From positions 30,014 through 94,013 of the forward strand of contig JAGYKD010000004.1 in the NCBI GenBank assembly GCA_018401695.1: a stretch of DNA of 64,000 nt, read 5' to 3'. Made by a program: the position numbers and the translations under genes. Below, piece after piece: positions 16 through 36,827 of the stretch (position 1 is its first letter; each line of letters starts with the position of its first letter). The DNA is from Flavobacteriales bacterium (GTDB lineage: Bacteria > Bacteroidota > Bacteroidia > CAIKAF01). The notes under the pieces were generated by a model. That model was given only the letters and a program-made list of their open reading frames with translations. It had not been told where the DNA came from and did not search any database.

Positions 16-358
16 TTAGCTTAAGTTTTTAATCATGGCATAAAGAATTCGAGATAACACGTCTGCTTGGTTTGCCAAAGCCTCAAAATCCTCAACAGAA
101 AGGAAGTTTTCGTCCCTCAATACATCCAATATAGCAACACATTCAAACACCGAACTGCGAGCAATTACAAAAAACACGTCTATCTTTTTTAGTAAACCGA
201 CCGGAGCCCTCGGCAATATTAAGGACAATACTAAAGGAGGCTCGGGTTAGTTGATCTCTTGTTGTGGCATCCAAAGGAGCACTTCGGATGAAGTCACGAA
301 CCAGTAAATTGAAGGTTTTGGCCTTTTGGTAAATTTCCAGTTTTTCAAAGTCAAACAT
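16..358 (-). pseudogene. Four-helix-bundle protein (IVS/TIGR02436, Avd-like), copy 1; chimeric and frameshifted
   Basis: Starts MFDFEKLEIYQKA...SIVLNIAEGSGRF like copies 2-4. The frame breaks at the A6 tract 169-174 and continues in ORF 16..228 as FFVIARSSVFECVAILDVL...AMIKNLS. Could be a homopolymer sequencing error. Confidence 0.75.
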
Positions 359-555
359 ACGTGCGTTTTTGTAGGGCAGGAGCAAAATGCAGTTTGAGTT
401 TGGGTGTGAGCGTGAAGGCCTGTCGTCGCTCTCGTTACCACACTCCCACAGTTTGAGTTTGGGTGTGAGCGTGAAGAAAAATCAGAGTGCTTGTCGTCGC
501 TCTCGCTTTTTGGAAATAACCTTTTTATAGGCATTTTGAACGATGAATGCAGATT

Positions 556-903
556 TCATCCCTTCAGGTTTTTAATCATAGCAAACAGCATTTTTGAAAT
601 TTCTTCGGCCTTTTGGTAAAAATGGAGGAATTGCCTTTTATTCAATACCTTCTCTTCCATCAATAGCTCAAGAATTGCTACGCATTCGAATAAGGAGCTT
701 CTTGAAATGATGAGAAAATTACGCCTGTCGGGTTTAGAAAACCTACCTGACCCCTCGGCAATATTAAGGACAATACTAAAGGAGGCTCGGGTTAGTTGAT
801 CTCTTGTTGTGGCATCCAAAGGAGCACTTCGGATGAAGTCACGAACCAGTAAATTGAAGGTTTTGGCCTTTTGGTAAATTTCCAGTTTTTCAAAGTCAAA
901 CAT
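556..903 (-). CDS. Four-helix-bundle protein (23S rRNA IVS-protein family), copy 2
   Basis: Family motifs FEKLEIYQKA, DQLTRASFSIVLNIAEG, RRNFLIISRSSLFEC; ATG at 903; 115 aa. Confidence 0.9.
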   Translation of the reverse strand: MFDFEKLEIYQKAKTFNLLVRDFIRSAPLDATTRDQLTRASFSIVLNIAEGSGRFSKPDRRNFLIISRSSLFECVAILELLMEEKVLNKRQFLHFYQKAEEISKMLFAMIKNLKG

Positions 904-1100
904 ACGTGCGTTTTTGTAGGGCAGGAGCAAAATGCAGTTTGAGTTTGGGTGTGAGCGTGAAGGCCTGTCGTCGCTCTCGTTACCACACTCCCACAGTTTG
1001 AGTTTGGGTGTGAGAGTGAAGAAAAATCAGAGTGCTTGTCGTCGCTCTCGCTTTTTGGAAATAACCTTTTTACAGGCATTTTGAACGATGAATGCAGATT

Positions 1101-1448
1101 TCATCCCTTCAGGTTTTTAATCATAGCAAAAAGCATTTTTGAAATTTCTTCGGCCTTTTGGTAAAAATGGAGGAATTGCATTTTATTCAATAGCTTTTCT
1201 TCTGTCAGTAGCTCAAGAATTGCTACACATTCGAATAAGGAGCTTCTTGAAATGATGAGAAAATTACGCCTGTCGGGTTTAGAAAACCTACCTGACCCCT
1301 CGGCAATATTAAGGACAATACTAAAGGAGGCTCGGGTTAGTTGATTTCTTGTTGTGGCATCCAAAGGTGCACTTCGGATGAAGTCACGAACCAGTAAATG
1401 GAAGGTTTTGGCCTTTTGGTAAATTTCCAGTTTTTCAAAGTCAAACAT
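1101..1448 (-). CDS. Four-helix-bundle protein, copy 3
   Basis: Same motifs, offset 545 bp from copy 2, about a dozen SNPs. Confidence 0.9.
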   Translation of the reverse strand: MFDFEKLEIYQKAKTFHLLVRDFIRSAPLDATTRNQLTRASFSIVLNIAEGSGRFSKPDRRNFLIISRSSLFECVAILELLTEEKLLNKMQFLHFYQKAEEISKMLFAMIKNLKG

Positions 1449-1603
1449 ACGTGCGTTTTTGTAGGGCGGGAGCACAATACAGTTGGAGTTTGGGAGTGGG
1501 AGTGAAGAAAAATCAGAGCGTATGTCGTCGCTCTCGCTCCCACTCTCCCACAGTTTGAGTTTGGGAGTAATAACAAACAGGTATATGCTCTAAAAAAGGT
1601 TGC

Positions 1604-1652
1604 TTATAGTTCGCCAAAACTTCTTTTTTTTCGTAGTTTTGGCGAATTATAA
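1604..1652. promoter_or_regulatory. Palindrome TCGCCAAAA-N17-TTTTGGCGA overlapping the TAGTTTTG -7 element of the ATPase gene
   Basis: TTATAGTTCGCCAAAACT...AGTTTTGGCGAATTATAA seen directly; TAnnTTTG is the Bacteroidota -7 consensus. Confidence 0.7.
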
Positions 1653-1661
1653 TTAGGTAGT

Positions 1662-3077
1662 ATGTCAAATATTGTTGGTAGAGTTGAAGAACAAAGCATA
1701 TTGAAGCAGGCCTTTGAGAGTGAAAAGTCCGAATTAATTGCTCTGTATGGAAGAAGAAGAATCGGGAAGACTTTTTTGATTAGAGAATTTTTTAAGAAGA
1801 GAATAGTTTTCGAAGTCACCGGGCTGTACAACGGCAATATGAGTGACCAGCTTCAAAACTTTACTAAGGAGGTAAAAAAGAGAACTAAGAGTTCTGTCGC
1901 AGAGTTGCCAAATTCTTGGCTCAATGCATTTACAATGCTTGAGCAATATTTGGACACACAGAAGGGGAGCAGAAAAAAGGTAGTTTTTATAGATGAGTTC
2001 CCATGGATGGCAACTGTCAGGTCTAGATTTCTGATGGCCTTTGAAAACTTCTGGAATACTTACTGCATAAAGAGGAAAGATATTTTAGTAGTAATATGTG
2101 GATCCGCTGCTTCTTACATGGTTCAAAAAATAATTCGGAACAAGGGAGGACTCCACAATAGAATTTCAAGAAAAATTCGACTGCTGCCATTTAACCTACA
2201 TGAAACGGAGTTGTTTTTAAAAAGAAACGGTATTAAATACACCAGGTACGATATAATTCAAGTGTATATGGCTCTTGGAGGGGTTCCTCACCACTTAGAG
2301 AAATTAAGCAAAGGGCTAAGTGTTCCGCAAAACATTGATGCACTTTGTTTTAGTAATTATGGCACCCTAAATGATGAGTTCAATCAGCTGTATGTTTCCC
2401 TATTTGATGAATCTGAGCGTCACATGAAGATTATTAGAACCTTAGCAAGAACGAATAAAGGGCTTACAAGAAATGAATTGATAGCAAAGAGTGGATTGCC
2501 ATCTGGAGGAGATTTTTCCCTCAAGCTTACCGAGTTAATCGAGTCTGGATTTGTAACTGAATATCCATATTTTCAAAATAAGAAACAACTTACTCTGTAT
2601 CGCTTAACTGACGAATACTCAAAGTTCTATCTAAAGTTCATTGAAAATAATAAGAATGGCGGAGAAGGGACTTGGCAAAGACTTAGCACCACCCAGTCAT
2701 ATAATTCATGGTCTGGCTTCATGTTTGAAACCTTATGCCTCAAACACATTTATCAAATTAAGAGGTCATTACGGATAGATGCCATTTACTCCGCAAATAG
2801 GAGTTGGTTCAATAATAATGCCCAAGTGGATTTGTTGATTGACAGAGATGACAATGTGATGAATTTATGTGAGATGAAGTATTATAACGCTCCATACACC
2901 ATGGACAAGAAACACTATTTGAATCTAAAGAATAAGGTTGCCGAGTTACGAAAAGATACAAATACCAGAAAGAACATTTTCATCACCATGGTTACAACCT
3001 TTGGAGTTAATGAGAATAAATACAGCAAGGAGTTGATCCAGAATAGTCTGGACATGGACGCATTATTTATGATTTAG
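1662..3077 (+). CDS. AAA/archaeal-type ATPase with wHTH and C-terminal PD-(D/E)XK-like domain
   Basis: IVGR..E, Walker A GRRRIGKT, Walker B VFIDEF, ICGS, C-terminal QVDLLID...LCEMK. Confidence 0.9.
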   Translation: MSNIVGRVEEQSILKQAFESEKSELIALYGRRRIGKTFLIREFFKKRIVFEVTGLYNGNMSDQLQNFTKEVKKRTKSSVAELPNSWLNAFTMLEQYLDTQKGSRKKVVFIDEFPWMATVRSRFLMAFENFWNTYCIKRKDILVVICGSAASYMVQKIIRNKGGLHNRISRKIRLLPFNLHETELFLKRNGIKYTRYDIIQVYMALGGVPHHLEKLSKGLSVPQNIDALCFSNYGTLNDEFNQLYVSLFDESERHMKIIRTLARTNKGLTRNELIAKSGLPSGGDFSLKLTELIESGFVTEYPYFQNKKQLTLYRLTDEYSKFYLKFIENNKNGGEGTWQRLSTTQSYNSWSGFMFETLCLKHIYQIKRSLRIDAIYSANRSWFNNNAQVDLLIDRDDNVMNLCEMKYYNAPYTMDKKHYLNLKNKVAELRKDTNTRKNIFITMVTTFGVNENKYSKELIQNSLDMDALFMI

Positions 3078-3080
3078 GCA

Positions 3081-3125
3081 TAACTCGCCAAAAAGTAGGA
3101 AACGAAATAGTTTTGGCGAAGTTTA
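3081..3125. promoter_or_regulatory. Second TCGCCAAAA-N17-TTTTGGCGA palindrome just downstream of the ATPase stop
   Basis: Arms at 3085-3093 and 3111-3119, same 17-bp spacing as the upstream copy. Confidence 0.7.
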
Positions 3126-3244
3126 CAGCCCATTTGTTTGATCTTACGCAGCTTTATGTGTTCGTAGCACTGGCAATAGAAACCCAATATCCACTATATA
3201 CGAGGAGGATGTTGATGCGATGCTATCCTTGGGCGATCCTGTTC

Positions 3245-3316
3245 CTGACGCTTCGGTCAGGATCAAAAACCTGACGCTACGGACTGATGCTTCGAGTCAG
3301 CATCTTCGAGTCAGGG
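3245..3316. repeat. Cluster of short CCTGAC-GCTTCG-GTCAGG-type hairpins
   Basis: cctgacgcttcggtcagg, cctgacgctacgg, ctgatgcttcgagtcag, cttcgagtcagg. Confidence 0.45.
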
Positions 3317-3376
3317 ACTTCGTCTTGAAAACACAAGGCGTCAATGGGTTCGTACGTTTTTTTATGAAGGATACAC

Positions 3377-3529
3377 TGCGCCCCTGACCGACCGGCTACC
3401 CTGCAGTTGGGAGAGCCGCAGGGCTTAGCGGGTGGAGGCCCCGGCTTTTGAGGAGGGGCCCACGCACCACATAGCCCTGCGTGCTTAACCAACGAAGCGT
3501 AGTAGGGAAGGCAGGAAAAGGCGCCCAAA
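3377..3529 (-). repeat. GC-rich long-hairpin intergenic element (E1; homologous to 26903-27051)
   Basis: Reverse complement begins TTTGGGCGCCTTTTCCTGCCTTCCC and ends CCGGTCGGTCAGGGGCGCA, matching E6. Confidence 0.8.
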
Positions 3530-3606
3530 TACAGGGTGGGTTTGGGGAGAGGAGCAAGAGAAAAGGGGGACTTGTATTTTGAAACTTGCCTTTTGCTCGA
3601 GATGGG

Positions 3607-3951
3607 CTAGGAAAGGTTTTTAATCATAGCAAACAGCATTTTTGAAATTTCTTCGGCCTTTTGGTAAAAATGGAGGAATTGCATTTTATTCAATAGCTTT
3701 TCTTCTGTCAGTAGCTCAAGAATTGCTACACATTCGAATAAGGAGCTTCTTGAAATGATGAGAAAATTACGCCTGTCGGGTTTAGAAAACCTACCTGAAC
3801 CTTCAGCAATATTAAGGACAATACTAAAGGAGGCTCGGGTTAGTTGATCTCTTGTTGTGGCATCCAAGGGTGCACTTCGGATGAAGTCACGAACCAGTAA
3901 ATTGAAGGTTTTGGCCTTTTGGTAAATTTCCAGTTTTTCAAAGTCAAACAT
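3607..3951 (-). CDS. Four-helix-bundle protein, copy 4 (tRNA-proximal)
   Basis: Same protein, 114 aa, ends MIKNLS; its leader abuts the tRNA-Leu 3' end. Confidence 0.9.
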   Translation of the reverse strand: MFDFEKLEIYQKAKTFNLLVRDFIRSAPLDATTRDQLTRASFSIVLNIAEGSGRFSKPDRRNFLIISRSSLFECVAILELLTEEKLLNKMQFLHFYQKAEEISKMLFAMIKNLS

Positions 3952-4070
3952 ACGTGCGTTTTTGTAGGGCAGGAGCAAAATGCAGTTTGAGTTTGGGTGT
4001 GAGCGTGAAGGCCTGTCGTCGCTCTCGTTACCACACTCCCACAGTTTGAGTTTGGGTGTGGGAGTGAAGA

Positions 4071-4120
4071 AAAATCAGAGTGCTTGTCGTCGCTCTCGCT
4101 CCCACACTCACTCTGATTTT
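4071..4120 (-). terminator. Hairpin directly after tRNA-Leu (12-bp stem AAAATCAGAGTG/CACTCTGATTTT)
   Basis: Perfect 12-bp inverted repeat with a T-rich end on the minus strand; loop is long, so terminator function is inferred. Confidence 0.45.
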
Positions 4121-4121
4121 G

Positions 4122-4207
4122 TACCCGGGGCGGGACTTGAACCCGCACGGACATTACTGCCCACAGGATTTTAAGTCCTGCGTGTCTACCAATTCCACCA
4201 CCCGGGC
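4122..4207 (-). tRNA. tRNA-Leu (TAA)
   Basis: GCCCGGGTGGTGGAATTGGTAGACACGCAGGAC-TTAAAA-TCCTG...GGGTTCAAGTCCC...; long variable arm. Confidence 0.97.
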
Positions 4208-4602
4208 AGCTTGGGGCGGCTAAAGTACAAAATTCCTTTTATCCTAGCGCCTGTTCTCAAAAGTTGTTTGAAGGGTTCTCTGAGCATATCCCTAGGTGCT
4301 TGGCCACTCCGGATAAAACAAAGCGAGGAAAATGCTATCCACTTATTGACCAATGCATTACTAAATTTTGGATAGGCTATACCTTTTTTGGCCCCCCATA
4401 TACCCTTGGCCCCCCCCCTGCATTCCGTGGCGGGTAATTCAGTTCGGCCGGACCTGCCGCAGAAATTGTCCGGTGAAACATCCGCTTAGTCCAACCGAGA
4501 GCCTTCCCGGCGCTTCTTTCTTAAGTATGTAAAAGACGGTGGAATAGTTAGCTAGGGTGCATATTTCGGGGAATAACCGGGGCGATTAGGGCAGTATTTT
4601 TA

Positions 4603-4770
4603 TTTGGGCGCCTAATCCGTCTCCGGCCATTAGCTGCCTTGTGGGGAAGCTACGCCGCAAAGCGTAGGCAAGGAGCTTCCTGTGGTCGCTCTTGCCTACG
4701 CAGCGGCTGTGCACCCCACATCGGCAGGCTAATTGGCCTGCGCCGGGGCGCGTTAAGCTCCGTGTGGGGA
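4603..4770 (+). repeat. GC-rich long-hairpin element (E2; near-identical inverted copy at 19817-19983)
   Basis: TTTGGGCGCC..TCCGTCTCCGGCC...GCGTAGGCAAG/CTTGCCTACGC...GCCGGGGCGC. Confidence 0.85.
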
Positions 4771-4774
4771 TTAT

Positions 4775-4804
4775 CCCATAGCCCAGGGTTTCAACCGTGG
4801 GCTA
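4775..4804. repeat. REP-like palindrome; direct-repeat partner at 7934-7963
   Basis: CCCATAGCCCAGGGTTTCAACCGTGGGCTA versus CCCATAGCCCACGGTTTCAACTGTAGGCCA. Confidence 0.7.
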
Positions 4805-5111
4805 AACAGCAGTCAACAAGAAAACTACGCTTCATTTGTTGAGGGAAAGCCATGCGACGCAATTGCTTGAGGCGGGAACTCATTTACGGTACATTCAAGA
4901 ATTATTGGGGTAAAAGAGTCCACGCACGACAAAGACCTACACCCATGAAAGTAAGCATGCCTTGGAACAAATTCGGAGTCCGTAGGATGACCTTTGAGGT
5001 ATTTTCCATATTTTTCCATAGCGGAAAGGCGCAACGGTATCACCCCAATACAACAGCATGTGCTTAGGTAGGTTGAAGATATGTCGCCTATAAGTAAGTT
5101 GGGGGCAATGT

Positions 5112-5201
5112 AAAAAGAAAAGAGCCCCCGAAAACGAGCGCTCTTTGAAATCTTAGACTTGATTACGTTCTCAAGAAAGAAGAGGCTTGATCAAGCATTA
5201 C
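5112..5201 (-). ncRNA. Candidate small RNA transcribed divergently from the Abi-like gene
   Basis: Minus-strand TTTG(5237-5234)-N20-TACATTTG(5213-5206) promoter, internal hairpins, terminal AAAGAGC/GCTCTTT stem followed by a T-run; no ORF. Confidence 0.45.
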
Positions 5202-5240
5202 ACTACAAATGTAACTCTTATTTTTGATAAAAACAAAGAA

Positions 5241-5921
5241 TTGGAATACTCAAAGCTTGAATACTATCTATCACAACCCAGACTTCAAAGATTTCTTAAT
5301 GCAACAGGAAATTCAAGGGCAAAAGCCCAAAAGCTATACAGAGTAAACCTTAGGGTATCACAAGCTTTTTACCCTGTATTCAATCTCTTTGAAATCTTCT
5401 TGAGAAATACTGTTAATTATCACGTTTCAAGTCACTTTTCTAATCCAAATTGGATAGTGTCAGAAAAGACAGGCTTCATGAGTAATCCGACTTTAGCTCC
5501 TTCTCGTTTCTTTCTAAAGAAAAGCATTCAGAAGGCGGAAAGAACAATCAGAAGAAAGGGTAGTACTGTTACTTCAGGTAAGGTAATTGCGGAACAATCA
5601 TTTGGTTTTTGGACCAGTCTTTTTGACACCCACCACTATAGACTAATTGGTGGCTCACCAATACAAGCCTTCCCTCTTAAACCAGCACATGCTAACAGAA
5701 GTTTGATTAACCAAAAGCTAAATAAGATTCGAGAGTTTCGTAACCGAATTTATCATAATGAACCCATTTGCTTCAATGGTCCGAACATTGACTTTTCAGA
5801 GGCTCATGACATTAAAGACGAAGTATATGAGTTGCTTAATTTGATTGATACAGACTTAACTGATTATGTCGAATATTTTAATGGAATTCAATCAAAAATA
5901 GATTCAGCAACGAGCATATGA
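5241..5921 (+). CDS. Abi-like (AbiD/AbiF-related) HEPN-domain protein
   Basis: LSQPRL, LYRVN...FEIFLRN, SFGFW, HEPN motif RNRIYH(NEPI). TTG start at 5241 preferred because TATTTTTG lies at 5219-5226. Confidence 0.8.
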   Translation: MEYSKLEYYLSQPRLQRFLNATGNSRAKAQKLYRVNLRVSQAFYPVFNLFEIFLRNTVNYHVSSHFSNPNWIVSEKTGFMSNPTLAPSRFFLKKSIQKAERTIRRKGSTVTSGKVIAEQSFGFWTSLFDTHHYRLIGGSPIQAFPLKPAHANRSLINQKLNKIREFRNRIYHNEPICFNGPNIDFSEAHDIKDEVYELLNLIDTDLTDYVEYFNGIQSKIDSATSI

Positions 5922-6162
5922 AAGAAACACTGCCCCCAACATTTAGCCGAGTAACAGAGTAGCCTTGCCAAAAAGCCCTGAAAGACGCTGTATCTTTTAG
6001 GGCTTTTCTGTTTAACTTTTCATACACCGACCCGAAGACGGGAATATTGTAAGCATCCGGCCAACTCCATATTCCCCAGCCCAAAATCCCCCACAACTTT
6101 GGACAAATCATAAAATGATGTCCAAACGCCATCAAAAAAGAGAAGCCTTGCCCGCTCCGATA

Positions 6163-6351
6163 GAAGCATGGCGGCAATGTGGAGAAGCACACGCTCCTTT
6201 TGCTGCAAAACACCAAATTTTCTTCACCAAATTTCAGTATTGAGTGCGGAAAAGCAAGGCGGCTCATGCCCCGGAGTGCTTTTGGAACTTCCCAAGCCAA
6301 GGAACGGTAAAAACACCAAACTTTGCGTTTTAAGTTGCCCATCAAAGCCGA
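6163..6351 (+). repeat. ~190-bp direct repeat, left of the Fic gene
   Basis: TTTTGCTGCAAAACACCAAATTT...CATGCCCCGGAG.GCTTTTGG...GCCAAGGAAC shared with 7701-7888. Confidence 0.85.
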
Positions 6352-6363
6352 TTGCCTCCATAG

Positions 6364-6446
6364 TGCAACGAATAAAGACAATAATTAACGCAAAAAAAGC
6401 AACGAATATTTTTGTTTTGCGACGAATATAGGATACATTCGTTGCA
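6364..6446 (+). promoter_or_regulatory. Repeated operator-like boxes GC(A/G)ACGAATA upstream of Fic
   Basis: Direct copies at 6365, 6399 and 6419; inverted ATTCGTTGC at 6437 overlaps the -7-like TACATTCG. Confidence 0.55.
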
Positions 6447-6459
6447 AGAAATGCATTGA

Positions 6460-7578
6460 ATGAGGACTTTTATACATCAAATGGACAATTGGCCCGAATT
6501 TACTTGGAATAGCAGTGATTTCTTGGATTTATTGAGTGAGGCAAGGAATTTACAAGGCAGGCTTTTTGGGAAAATGGAAAGACTAGGCTTCGATTTGAGA
6601 AAAGAGGCTCTGCTTCACACCTTAACTCTTGATGTATTAAAATCATCAGAGATTGAAGGAGAATTTCTTAATCCAGACCAAGTTCGCTCATCCATCGCTC
6701 GCAGATTAGGAATGGAAATATCAGGAGCCGTTGAGTCCGACAGGAATGTAGAAGGGGTGGTAGAAATGATGCTTGATGCAACTCAAAAATGTTTTGACCC
6801 ATTGACCGCAGACAGACTGTTTGATTGGCATGCTGCTTTATTTCCAACAGGCAGAGTCGGGATGTATAAAATAACTGTTGCCGATTGGAGAAAAGATACT
6901 ACCGGACCTATGCAGGTAGTATCCGGAGCAATGGGAAAAGAAAAAGTACATTTTGAGGCCCCTGATTCAAATTTGGTGGAAAAAGAAATGACCCGATTTT
7001 TAGAGTGGTTCAATACTAGGAAAATGGACTTGGTAATTAAGGCTGCCTTGGCACATGTATGGTTTGTAACCATCCACCCTTTTGAAGATGGAAACGGAAG
7101 GATAGCAAGGGCATTGACAGATATGCTTCTTGCACAGTCCGACAAAAGTAACCAACGCTTCTATAGCATGTCTGCACAGATTCGATTAGAAAGGAAGCAA
7201 TACTATGAGATATTAGAAAAAACCCAAAAGGGTAATTTAGACCTTACCGAATGGATCGTATGGTTCCTAAACTGTTTGATTAATGCCTTGAAAGCTACAG
7301 ATTCAATACTAACAAGCGTATTATTCAAAGCGGATTTCTGGCAAAGACATATAGATACGGCAATAAATGAGCGTCAAAGAAAATTATTGAACAAATTGAT
7401 GGATGGCTTTGATGGGAAATTGACGTCTTCGAAATGGGCAAAAATTGCAAAATGTTCCAAAGATTCAGCGGTTAGAGATATTAATGACTTGATTGATAAA
7501 GGAATATTGCAAAAAGAAGCAGCAGGAGGAAGAAGTACAAGTTATGGACTGATAGGAATGCCGGCAGGTAACAATTAA
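6460..7578 (+). CDS. Fic family protein (DUF4172 N-terminus, C-terminal HTH)
   Basis: Fic motif HPFEDGNGRIAR, SSEIEGE, C-terminal AVRDINDL...GGRSTSY. Confidence 0.95.
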   Translation: MRTFIHQMDNWPEFTWNSSDFLDLLSEARNLQGRLFGKMERLGFDLRKEALLHTLTLDVLKSSEIEGEFLNPDQVRSSIARRLGMEISGAVESDRNVEGVVEMMLDATQKCFDPLTADRLFDWHAALFPTGRVGMYKITVADWRKDTTGPMQVVSGAMGKEKVHFEAPDSNLVEKEMTRFLEWFNTRKMDLVIKAALAHVWFVTIHPFEDGNGRIARALTDMLLAQSDKSNQRFYSMSAQIRLERKQYYEILEKTQKGNLDLTEWIVWFLNCLINALKATDSILTSVLFKADFWQRHIDTAINERQRKLLNKLMDGFDGKLTSSKWAKIAKCSKDSAVRDINDLIDKGILQKEAAGGRSTSYGLIGMPAGNN

Positions 7579-7700
7579 GGTTTCGTTCGCCCTGCCATGC
7601 CTTGAATGAAACCGCTGTTGATGCCCTCACCTGCGCGCAGGGCAGGCTCCACCGGGGGGCGAGCATTAATTAGCGCTAAGGAACCATGCTCGTTTTGAAA

Positions 7701-7888
7701 GAAGAATGCCGGCAAAGCAGAGAAACAATCTCATTTTGCTGCAAAACACCAAATTTCCTTCGTCAAATTTCAAAATAGGCTGCGGAATAGCAGGGCGGTC
7801 CATGCCCCGGAGGGCTTTTGGGAACTTGATTTGCCAAGGAACAGAAAAAACAACTAAATTTGATTTTACAGTTGTCTAATAAGGCCGA
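7701..7888 (+). repeat. ~190-bp direct repeat, right of the Fic gene
   Basis: Diverged copy of 6163-6351. Confidence 0.85.
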
Positions 7889-7933
7889 CCACCTCACATG
7901 TCCCGTGGAGCCAGATGTAAACACTGCGAAACA

Positions 7934-7963
7934 CCCATAGCCCACGGTTTCAACTGTAGGCCA
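7934..7963. repeat. REP-like palindrome, partner of 4775-4804
   Basis: CCCATAGCCCACGGTTTCAACTGTAGG. Confidence 0.7.
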
Positions 7964-8009
7964 GGATTTCAACCCCTACCCAAAACTCCATAGCTTCGCG
8001 ATCTCCGCC

Positions 8010-8154
8010 AGGGACCGGCACGGATGCCCCACAGCTTCGGGGTTTAGGCCTAGGTGGGCGGGCGGGGTGTAGCTTTGCGGAACCTCCGCGCGGCCCCTAG
8101 GCCTTGGCCCCGAAGCGAGGAGCAGCAGGGAGGGCCCGGCCGGCGGCACAAAAC
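8010..8154 (-). repeat. GC-rich long-hairpin element (E3; related to 61415-61619)
   Basis: CTTCGGGG..AGGCCTAGG/CCTAGGCCT..CCCCGAAG stem; GGCCGGGCCCT and CGGTCCCT ends shared with E11. Confidence 0.7.
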
Positions 8155-8179
8155 AATAATCTCTCCATTTCCTCCATTC

Positions 8180-36581: not shown

Positions 36582-36735
36582 TTTGGGGGCCCTTTTCCGG
36601 CTTTCCGCTATAGCTTTTTGGCACCTTGGCTTTGTTCCTATGGCTTCTCCGGGGCTTGCTGCCGCTCCGCCCGGCTCAGCCGGAAACAAATGCCAAGCTG
36701 CTGCAAAAGGCTGCCGCTGCAATCCGGGGGCCGTG
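36582..36735 (+). repeat. GC-rich long-hairpin element (E7)
   Basis: TTTGGGGGCCC..TCCGGCTTTCCGCTATAGC...GCTGCAATCCGGGGGCC. Confidence 0.7.
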
Positions 36736-36827
36736 AACCTCTGTAGTTCTTTTTTGCTCTTTTCGTTTTTTCATAGGATTATCTTCCTTTTGTTCTTACT
36801 TTTGCGGCCGGAAACTTATTACCGTAA

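Follow-up and report, generated by a model that had tools for sequence, protein, structure and literature searches.

The window analysed here is a stretch of 64,000 nucleotides (nt) from contig JAGYKD010000004.1 of a Flavobacteriales bacterium (assembly GCA_018401695.1), and its left end holds a tRNA-Leu(TAA) gene together with four copies, c1 to c4, of a small gene for a four-helix-bundle protein of the family PF05635/TIGR02436. The tRNA gene occupies positions 4121-4207 of the minus strand (ARAGORN; Rfam tRNA model, 60.1 bits), is 93-97% identical in genomes of the same genus, and is abutted at its 3' end by a cassette consisting of a structured leader and the gene copy c4. An earlier note on this DNA, made from the letters alone, had described four copies on the strand of the tRNA, three of them with an exact period of 545 base pairs (bp) and the fourth with its leader fused to the tRNA 3' end, and in these points it was accurate. 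All four copies lie on the minus strand and match PF05635/TIGR02436; a repeat search returns one family with four 300-nt copies at 170, 715, 1260 and 3763 (spacings 545, 545 and 2503), the identities to the first copy being 96, 82 and 95%; and the c4 leader (3952-4120, 169 nt) starts at the base right after the tRNA. The description as a tandem array holds for the 545-bp period of c1 to c3, but c4 is set apart by an ATPase gene on the opposite strand and c1 is a frameshifted chimera.

The open reading frames (ORFs) as called lie on the minus strand at 16-385 (c1, in two frames), 556-930 (c2), 1101-1475 (c3) and 3607-3978 (c4). The true start of each copy is likely an internal ATG (protein start MFDFEKLEIY...), which gives products of 114-115 amino acids (aa). 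With these starts the tRNA-proximal copy c4 extends over 3607-3951 (114 aa; PF05635 88.8 bits, TIGR02436 83.4 bits), c3 over 1101-1448 (115 aa; PF05635 87.6 bits; 97-98% identical to c4) and c2 over 556-903 (115 aa; PF05635 89.1 bits). Taken together, c2 to c4 score 87.6-89.1 bits with PF05635 (cut-off 33.8) and 83.2-83.4 bits with TIGR02436 (cut-off 24), and the c2 unit shares 97.3% identity with the c4 unit over 487 nt. The copy c1 (16-358) is chimeric and broken, with two ORF pieces that give partial PF05635 matches of 47.2 and 29.1 bits. Its first ~300 nt are of the c type, whereas its 3' half (256-25) is 86% identical to the allele that the same-genus genome G002 carries at this tRNA, in a region where c4 is only 71% identical to that allele. 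The frame is broken by the loss of two bases, relative to G002, in a run of six T at 169-174 (read by eye), and c1 is a pseudogene as it stands in the present assembly. To the left of c1, a 30-nt stretch matches the beginning of the G002-type leader.

The four copies are not contiguous, since c3 and c4 are separated by the ATPase gene (1662-3077, plus strand, 471 aa; ATPase_2 and DUF234 in Pfam; full-length PADLOC match to PDC-S27, E 4.5e-191) and by about 500 nt of GC-rich dispersed repeats. The ATPase gene is a candidate defence gene and stands outside the cassette. In the 3' flank of c4 (3205-3606), the first ~130 nt past the stop codon are common to the 3' flank of the G002 allele, and the remainder is the GC-rich sequence (blastn), which we call a dispersed repeat because the region 3200-3560 has 53 blastn matches in the genome, the query region included. 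On the other side, left of c1, come a 103-aa ORF that matches nothing in Pfam and, beyond it, secA and fatty-acid genes, so the array ends within the window. The earlier note had thought that the array may continue to the left and that the upstream contig could hold more copies, a reverse transcriptase (RT) or an integrase; this expectation failed, as the upstream contig contains no further gene copy, no RT and no integrase.

Each copy has private differences and the copies are therefore not a single gene multiplied by the assembler. The available metagenome contigs are short, break at the repeats, and none of them spans the array; contig depth is raised at 3235-3528 in four metagenomes. Exact-match contigs from X1 cover the private parts of c1 and the junction between the c3 leader and the ATPase gene. 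One contig from X2 has two extra bases at 168 and would keep the c1 frame, a single contig from X3 (depth 6) fuses a c1-like body to the tRNA-proximal leader, and contigs from X5 cover the ATPase gene while nothing at ≥90% identity falls on 1-1470. We take the differences in X2, X3 and X5 as weak hints of strain variation and do not rely on them.

All four copies are preceded by a leader. Starting from the tRNA, the leader of c4 consists of a first hairpin (4070-4120, minus strand) with an A-run, a 12-bp stem, a 26-nt loop that holds a conserved purine motif at 4090-4101, and a T-run, which together give it a terminator-like appearance. This is followed by a pyrimidine/CA-rich tract (4042-4069, called 3'b) that, judged by leader alignments and duplex energies, is complementary to the purine 5' arm of the hairpin, and by a second, partial leader unit of 59 nt with a short untranslated stretch up to the ATG of c4 (3952-4041). 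The region 3940-4125 folds at -57.7 kcal/mol (z -3.4). A sequence-only profile of the leader, model R1, scores 65.2 bits over 4042-4121 and gives a weak match to the internal repeat (3979-4038, 19.7 bits). The leader of c3 (1449-1568) is a single unit that misses the outer 5' hairpin arm and one 59-nt sub-unit (R1 match 1478-1547, 50.1 bits). The spacer and leader ahead of c2 (904-1100) comprise a truncated hairpin and the second 59-nt unit (R1 matches 994-1054, 47.7 bits, and 931-990, 19.8 bits), and those ahead of c1 occupy 359-555 (449-509, 44.5 bits, and 386-445, 19.8 bits). Within the window R1 matches at the four units only, and in the whole genome it finds this locus only, apart from three weak partial matches. 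Another match to the leader, 21-22 nt long and located at C1:615812, is due to a short pyrimidine tract within a spacer rich in repeats.

The assignment of the protein to TIGR02436 and its kinship with Avd, the accessory protein of diversity-generating retroelements (DGRs), both named in the earlier note, agree with the profile scores and with the structural comparison. The structure model of c4 (predicted local distance difference test score, pLDDT, 97.1) has four helices at residues 8-26, 31-51, 57-83 and 89-112, and Foldseek aligns it with 2gsc (XCC0516; template modelling (TM) score 0.92), 2rld (BT_0352; 0.84-0.85) and Avd (4dwl; 0.81). The PDB entries 2gsc and 2rld contain five chains each, and a pentamer is reported for XCC0516 (PMC4990558). 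A review treats the PF05635-type family and Avd as kin (PMC10053308). Among 40 sequences of the cassette protein, 23 columns are invariant, and the proteins are mildly basic (median isoelectric point 8.8). PADLOC and PHROGs returned no match to the four-helix-bundle protein. By its modelled fold the protein is a relative of the RNA-binding Avd scaffold.

The earlier note had further claimed that a gene-plus-leader unit is being amplified at a tRNA hotspot, and it had named a fixed arrangement at tRNA-Leu(TAA) in relatives as the counter-case. The arrangement is not fixed within the genus. In G001, G003 and G006 the tRNA is followed by a plain small-loop terminator and no cassette, and in G002 a four-helix-bundle gene lies 87 nt behind this tRNA that is only 51% identical to c4. 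The c-type copies of this genome (G000) and the G002 allele sit in different well-supported clades of the protein tree. G002 also has a second cassette, with an in-frame stop, behind its gene for transfer-messenger RNA (tmRNA). In the present genome the flank of the tmRNA gene is plain, and ordinary flanks are the rule for all 39 tRNA/tmRNA genes other than tRNA-Leu(TAA). In G002, 2.5 kilobases (kb) further on and behind a HipA-like toxin-antitoxin pair, there is moreover a solo c-type leader hairpin without a gene (L151:9624-9695). This solo leader joins directly to the repeat that in the window follows c4, and it looks as if the remainder of the leader, the gene and the tail (~510 nt) were missing there.

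To place the locus in a wider context, one genome per species was scanned with an alignment of seven sequences of the subclade, which gave at least 576 confirmed relatives among at least 602 pattern matches. The linkage counts given here refer to the best 80 of these at least 576 relatives, with 2-kb flanks where the contig allowed it. A tRNA or tmRNA gene is found upstream on the same strand in 55 of the 80 loci by ARAGORN, and Rfam adds two tmRNAs (57/80). The nearest one ends 63-832 nt, often 83-99 nt, before the ATG. An upstream tRNA on the opposite strand does not occur in any of the 80 loci, and a downstream opposite-strand tRNA occurs in one. By our own arithmetic, 40 tRNA/tmRNA genes in 2.99 Mb would lead to about 0.6% by chance. 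The partners are tRNAs for Leu (five anticodons), Arg (four), Met, Lys, Glu and Val as well as tmRNA, and tmRNA-linked cassettes are present in the named isolates Crocinitomix catalasitica ATCC 23190 and Putridiphycobacter roseus SM1701. As a control we used the 30 best loci of other PF05635 genes from 60 Bacteroidota genomes. Co-oriented upstream tRNAs are absent from all 30 (in one locus, two tRNAs lie on the other strand at distances above 1 kb), so the linkage is a property of the subclade and not of the whole family. We conclude that these genes appear to form a distinct PF05635/TIGR02436 subclade (N-terminus MFDF..., core NIAEGSGRF) that is found almost exclusively in tRNA/tmRNA 3' trailers of Bacteroidota. 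The idea of the earlier note was largely right, since the unit, its tie to a tRNA 3' end and its amplification all stand, the last one also at other loci (L095, L101 and L118); the finding is wider than a single locus, and the unit is not peculiar to one tRNA-Leu.

Searches outside the bacterial chromosomes yielded little. The subclade has no match in 50,697 phage records, only two distant cyanobacterial matches in plasmids, and four weak matches in IMG/VR (best identity 41%), where the two scanned loci have no tRNA. A full-text literature search found nothing on a tRNA/tmRNA linkage; it did not extend to subscription journals, so such a report may be in print.

Several individual loci show further arrangements. 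In L022 (genome G030), a gene of a different clade (31% identical to c4) with a purine-rich leader lies 72 nt behind a co-oriented tRNA-Cys, and the tRNA-trailing habit may thus have arisen more than once. A second small type of cassette, an 85-110-aa GIY-YIG ORF on the strand of the tRNA, is located between the upstream tRNA and the four-helix-bundle cassette in five loci (L044:1517-1849, L064:1557-1853, L090:1479-1748, L093:1571-1828 and L057:1532-1813). Four of these loci (L044, L064, L090 and L093) have part of the 3' end of this upstream tRNA repeated in the interval that separates the tRNA from the ATG; the partial copies of L044 and L064 begin in the D-arm and carry another stem-loop instead of the anticodon arm. 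L045 (~1760-2000) contains a tRNA-Leu(caa) cut short after its 5' half, at the anticodon loop; the final codons of a four-helix-bundle ORF are joined to it, and a leader and a complete gene come next.

The aligned leaders, with a unit of ~90 nt, agree in the order of their parts: an A-run and a purine-rich 5' arm come first, then a conserved purine loop motif of ~12 nt, the 3' arm and a T-run, and after these a CTTC-like stretch and a pyrimidine/CA-rich tract, from which it is a few to some tens of bases to the ATG. Searches with nhmmer place a unit on the strand of the gene in 68 of the 80 loci; in 54 of the 80 it is no more than 120 nt away from the ATG. R1 has no match in the 30 control loci and five others. 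Most loci carry one upstream unit (49 loci), and two, three, four and nine units are found in 11, 3, 2 and 1 loci, respectively. The extreme case is L107, where nine tandem units of ~92 nt (1170-1997) fill the 832 nt between a tRNA-Arg(ccg) and the gene. A unit also occurs 3' of the gene in 19 of 77 loci, and in 16 loci there are units on both sides; the flanking units are direct and not inverted repeats.

The two arms of the hairpin fit each other locus by locus. Duplexes of arms from the same locus have a mean energy of -19.2 kcal/mol, compared with -10.5 for arms from different loci and -7.5 for shuffled ones, and the own-locus pair ranks best in 14 of 23 loci; the stems covary while the loop motif is conserved. 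The pyrimidine tract pairs with the 5' arm just as strongly as the 3' arm does (own -19.1, shuffled -10.4 kcal/mol); this pairing is less locus-specific (cross-locus mean -16.0 kcal/mol), because both parts are conserved. Minimum-energy folds choose the hairpin or the pyrimidine-tract pairing about equally often. RNAalifold on a MAFFT alignment of the leaders gave only five pairs and -1.1 kcal/mol because two leader subtypes are out of register, and we therefore used the own-versus-cross duplex energies instead. The hairpin looks like an intrinsic (rho-independent) terminator: in c4 a 12-bp stem is followed by five T, and a run of at least four T follows the hairpin in 23 of 24 aligned leaders. 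On this strand a simple terminator scan picks out nothing but the inner hairpin of the leader of c3, since the leader loops exceed the limit of the scan. Rfam 15 has no family at 3952-4120 or at the other leaders, and in 20 related loci it reports only tmRNA. All in all, the anatomy and the distribution of the cassette are well supported.

How the gene is expressed was addressed with an 8-mer which we take to be the Bacteroidota -7 box. An exact copy is present within 80 nt before the tRNA/tmRNA in 38 of 54 loci, whereas no more than 5 of 55 leaders contain one (short leaders, 1 of 22; long leaders, 4 of 33). A sigma-70 promoter scan was no better than shuffles, the sigma-70 consensus not being applicable to Bacteroidota. 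At the tRNA-Leu(TAA) of the window, two overlapping near-matches to the box (7 of 8 positions, by eye) lie at 4220-4235 on the minus strand, and their sequence is conserved in G002; they form a candidate promoter for the tRNA and the cassette. The strict co-orientation and the placement of the box point to transcription from the promoter of the stable RNA through a leaky hairpin. It appears that the cassette gene has no promoter of its own and is probably expressed by read-through from the tRNA or tmRNA, in the manner of the co-transcription that the earlier note had suggested.

The cassette behaves like a small mobile element: genomes of one genus differ in whether they have it, one allele is exchanged for another at a given site, and closely related proteins are found behind different tRNAs. 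In a protein tree of 88 rows, which comes from a quick search and in which many forks are weak, the amino-acid identity of the tRNA must have changed at least 14 times and the anticodon at least 28 times among the rows with a label, and the short branches of one well-supported clade join genes behind Lys, Met and three Arg tRNAs. Two stacked tandem genes in L066 belong to different clades, while the tandem genes in L095, L101 and L118 are near-identical. The cassette of L099 is bracketed by repeats that combine the tmRNA 3' end with the beginning of the leader, each tandem copy of L118 has the terminal 16 nt of tRNA-Arg ahead of it, and behind the genes of L041 and L044 there are a decayed 3' piece of a tRNA and the native terminator. 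The core of a T-loop occurs within 60 nt past the stop codon in 13 of 78 loci, compared with 21 of 670 background windows. A decayed tRNA T-arm that we believed to see by eye in the spacers after c2 and c3 was dropped (alignment p ~0.57). The 134 ORFs downstream of cassettes are mostly housekeeping genes and include no integrase, RT or transposase family.

Considering all this, we favor the interpretation that the cassette is a selfish or accessory element similar to the intervening sequences (IVSs) of rRNA genes, which is lodged in tRNA/tmRNA transcription units, expressed by read-through and enlarged by crossing-over between leader repeats. We would give this reading a probability of roughly 55%. 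According to it, the gene would be transcribed from the tRNA/tmRNA promoter through the terminator-like hairpin of the leader, and the long alternative stem formed by the 5' arm with 3'b might then offer a site for processing or translational control. Unequal crossing-over between the direct leader repeats that flank the gene would explain the 545-bp array, the tandem genes in L095, L101 and L118, the differing numbers of units and the solo leaders elsewhere. The spread to new tRNAs would occur by recombination at or near the tRNA 3' end, with the enzymes supplied in trans.

A number of observations weigh against this interpretation. There is no intact upstream tRNA/tmRNA in 23 of the 80 loci; in at least eight of these the available upstream sequence is shorter than 450 nt, and several show, by eye, a tRNA- or tmRNA-like 3' end right before the leader. 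The query was built mostly from tRNA-linked members, so the 80-locus figures describe the subclade and are not an unbiased sample, and the promoter test covers a single 8-mer. A hairpin with an A-run and a T-run resembles an efficient terminator, and simple read-through is unlikely at L107, where nine terminator-like units stand in series; the gene of this locus may be nearly silent or may use an unrecognised promoter. Since the alternative stem is made later than the terminator, it cannot compete with it during transcription. The copies c1 to c3 are not readable from the tRNA promoter, because they lie 2.1 kb away behind an opposite-strand gene. With regard to mobility, a repeat of the tRNA 3' end after the gene is significant (p<0.01) in only 5 of 56 loci, and the units of the window have no such repeat of at least 10 nt and no significant local alignment.

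Some of these difficulties would disappear if the gene were independent and had its own, unrecognised promoter, the leader being a control element of the 5' untranslated region or a leftover terminator and the tRNA site reflecting an insertion preference or tolerance only. The serial terminator-like units of L107, the two to four units in 16 further loci and the isolation of c1 to c3 would then be no obstacle to expression. Moreover, loci of the L073 type keep the normal tRNA terminator ahead of the cassette and have an AT-rich stretch 25-30 nt before the ATG that by eye loosely resembles a -7 box. However, the box counts given above separate the leaders clearly from the regions upstream of tRNA/tmRNA genes, and an insertion preference alone would not enforce 57 co-oriented against no opposed upstream genes unless insertion was directional. 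We regard this explanation as unlikely, but it deserves to be taken seriously.

It is distinctly unlikely that the cassette is a miniature cis-mobilisable element, which is inserted into the 3' part of tRNA genes by the trans-acting tyrosine integrase of a larger element, so that arrays arise from serial integrations. The tRNA- and tmRNA-end repeats of L099 and L118, the decayed pieces in L041 and L044, the excess of T-loop cores after the stop codon and the stacking of two clades in L066 would all be in line with such a process. Yet the scarcity of significant end repeats, which are lacking at all four units of the window, is not what it predicts, and none of the 134 downstream ORFs matches an integrase family. 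Integrases are usually specific for one tRNA, unlike the close cassettes behind at least 12 tRNA species and tmRNA. The 97% identity of c2 and c4 over 487 nt is also a better fit to local duplication than to separate captures.

Two further proposals assign a role to the leader as an RNA molecule. The first and more far-reaching one is that the leader units are the RNA partner of the protein, that an Avd-like ring binds hairpin RNAs, and that the resulting ribonucleoprotein (RNP) moves the cassette to the 3' ends of tRNAs, tmRNAs and perhaps rRNAs in an RNA-guided or RNA-templated manner without any recombinase gene; we consider this improbable and offer it as a speculation. Even a little more doubtful is an RNA-protein pair, in which the leader units would be an abundant structured RNA that is made from the tRNA promoter and bound by the protein, similar to type III toxin-antitoxin systems or to the Avd-RNA complex. 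The layout (a promoter, one to nine direct RNA repeats with terminator-like hairpins, then a small protein gene), the conserved loop motif with covarying stems, the mildly basic proteins and a fold near that of Avd in the solved ribonucleoprotein (8ub7 and related entries) would suit such a pair. To our knowledge, however, the fold differs from that of known type III toxins, and neither PADLOC nor PHROGs gave a match. In addition, an rRNA-IVS homologue is reported to be non-toxic in E. coli (PMC4990558).

An assembly or strain-mixing artefact, or the chance duplication of an ordinary gene near a tRNA, is hardly credible, for although the genome is a 19-contig draft, the metagenome contigs break at the repeats and the low-depth X3 contig joins a c1-like body straight to the tRNA-proximal leader, the four copies differ in defined ways, the X1 contigs confirm private parts and a junction, and the same architecture recurs in dozens of unrelated assemblies. 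A diversity-generating retroelement was rejected as well, there being no RT among the neighbours; the only RT match in this genome is located on a different contig (C1:879291).

The surroundings of the cassette contain several features that deserve a short description. On the 5' side of the tRNA there is a 3.9-kb insert (4272-8169), which is missing from G002 and carries an Abi_2-like gene (5187-5921, matching PD-T4-5) and a Fic gene (6460-7578, matching SoFic; both PADLOC). Together with the PDC-S27 ATPase gene, defence-type genes are thus found on both sides of tRNA-Leu. The Fic gene is bracketed by direct repeats of ~170 nt (6189-6358 and 7725-7895; 84% and 71% identical). A second dispersed repeat at 4560-5000 has 48 blastn matches in the genome, query included, and contains a 48-aa C-terminal fragment of a tyrosine integrase (4812-4955), similar fragments of which occur at six other sites of the genome. 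A related, GC-rich piece is also located behind tRNA-Leu(gag) on contig C12. The genome has one other clear member of the protein family (L009:3374-3751, contig C1; PF05635 120 bits), which falls in the bulk of the family; no tRNA lies within 3 kb of it, and its neighbour is a 134-aa fragment of an HpaII-type restriction nuclease. A match to the Flavo-1 RNA at 36590-36736 is right at the gathering score (42.3 versus 42 bits). The 23S rRNA gene of the window (2869 nt) matches the Rfam model over its full length (1-2925) and shows no sign of an IVS.

Few uncharacterised small proteins of bacteria are as common as those of the PF05635/TIGR02436 type, of which a Bacteroidota genome can have up to 15 copies; the only contexts known for them so far were intervening sequences of rRNA and, in the case of their distant relative Avd, retroelements. 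What is new is that a large subclade (at least 576 loci with one genome per species) is tied to a second kind of stable-RNA gene, in strict orientation and with a modular leader. The tmRNA-linked isolates make the question of protein function testable in cultured strains. A further result of our analysis is a candidate motif, a structured RNA or DNA absent from Rfam, and the analysis provides an example of very small, recombinase-less cassettes that target tRNA 3' ends, in which flanking leader repeats offer a simple explanation for copy-number change. If the RNP-driven movement was true, it would represent a minimal class of mobile elements and give a function to the long-unexplained rRNA IVS proteins.

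The closest known counterparts are the 23S rRNA IVSs, for instance of Leptospira and Coxiella (S23p). Both kinds of elements encode a PF05635 protein, reside in a stable-RNA unit and have long complementary stems. The rRNA IVSs are further characterised by a patchy distribution of the selfish type, a long stem that is cut by RNase III and short purine-rich repeats of variable number ahead of the ORF (PMC4990558), and the repeats and the patchiness are shared by the cassette. Members of the family have also been described in 16S and 23S insertions of bacteria of the Candidate Phyla Radiation (bioRxiv 10.1101/2024.02.27.582315). In contrast to the rRNA elements, the host of the cassette is a tRNA/tmRNA 3' trailer or an intergenic array and not an rRNA helix, its two complementary arms are on the 5' side of the ORF and do not enclose it as inverted repeats, its hairpin has a terminator-like T-run, and its ORFs are well conserved, whereas the ORF of Coxiella is decaying. 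Since the rRNA site, the ORF-enclosing stem and the RT of DGRs are all lacking, we file the protein in PF05635/TIGR02436 and the element as a variant of the IVSs.

Avd shares with the cassette protein the four-helix bundle (TM score 0.81 to 4dwl and 0.78-0.80 to entries of the DGR ribonucleoprotein), but the sequence identity is only 12-13%, and the cassette locus has neither an RT nor a pair of template and variable repeats. XCC0516 (2gsc) and BT_0352 (2rld) are the best structural and the only sequence-profile matches among solved structures; with 22-25% identity, however, they belong to the bulk of the family, whose control loci gave no tRNA linkage (0/30).

Two other systems resemble the cassette in its organization. 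In E. coli, tufB is located behind four tRNAs, and the leuZ transcript releases a 3' trailer RNA. As in the cassette, a protein gene or an RNA is expressed there from a tRNA promoter and freed by tRNA processing, but these are fixed single loci, whereas we are dealing with a mobile cassette that brings its own leader to many different tRNAs. With integron cassettes and cis-mobilisable elements it has in common a promoterless ORF and a structured, recombination-prone repeat, stacked in one direction behind a site that bears the promoter. It differs from integron cassettes in that no integron integrase or attI was seen, in that the repeat is 5' of the ORF, and in that nearly all cassettes carry one gene family, with the GIY-YIG ORF being similarly placed in five loci.

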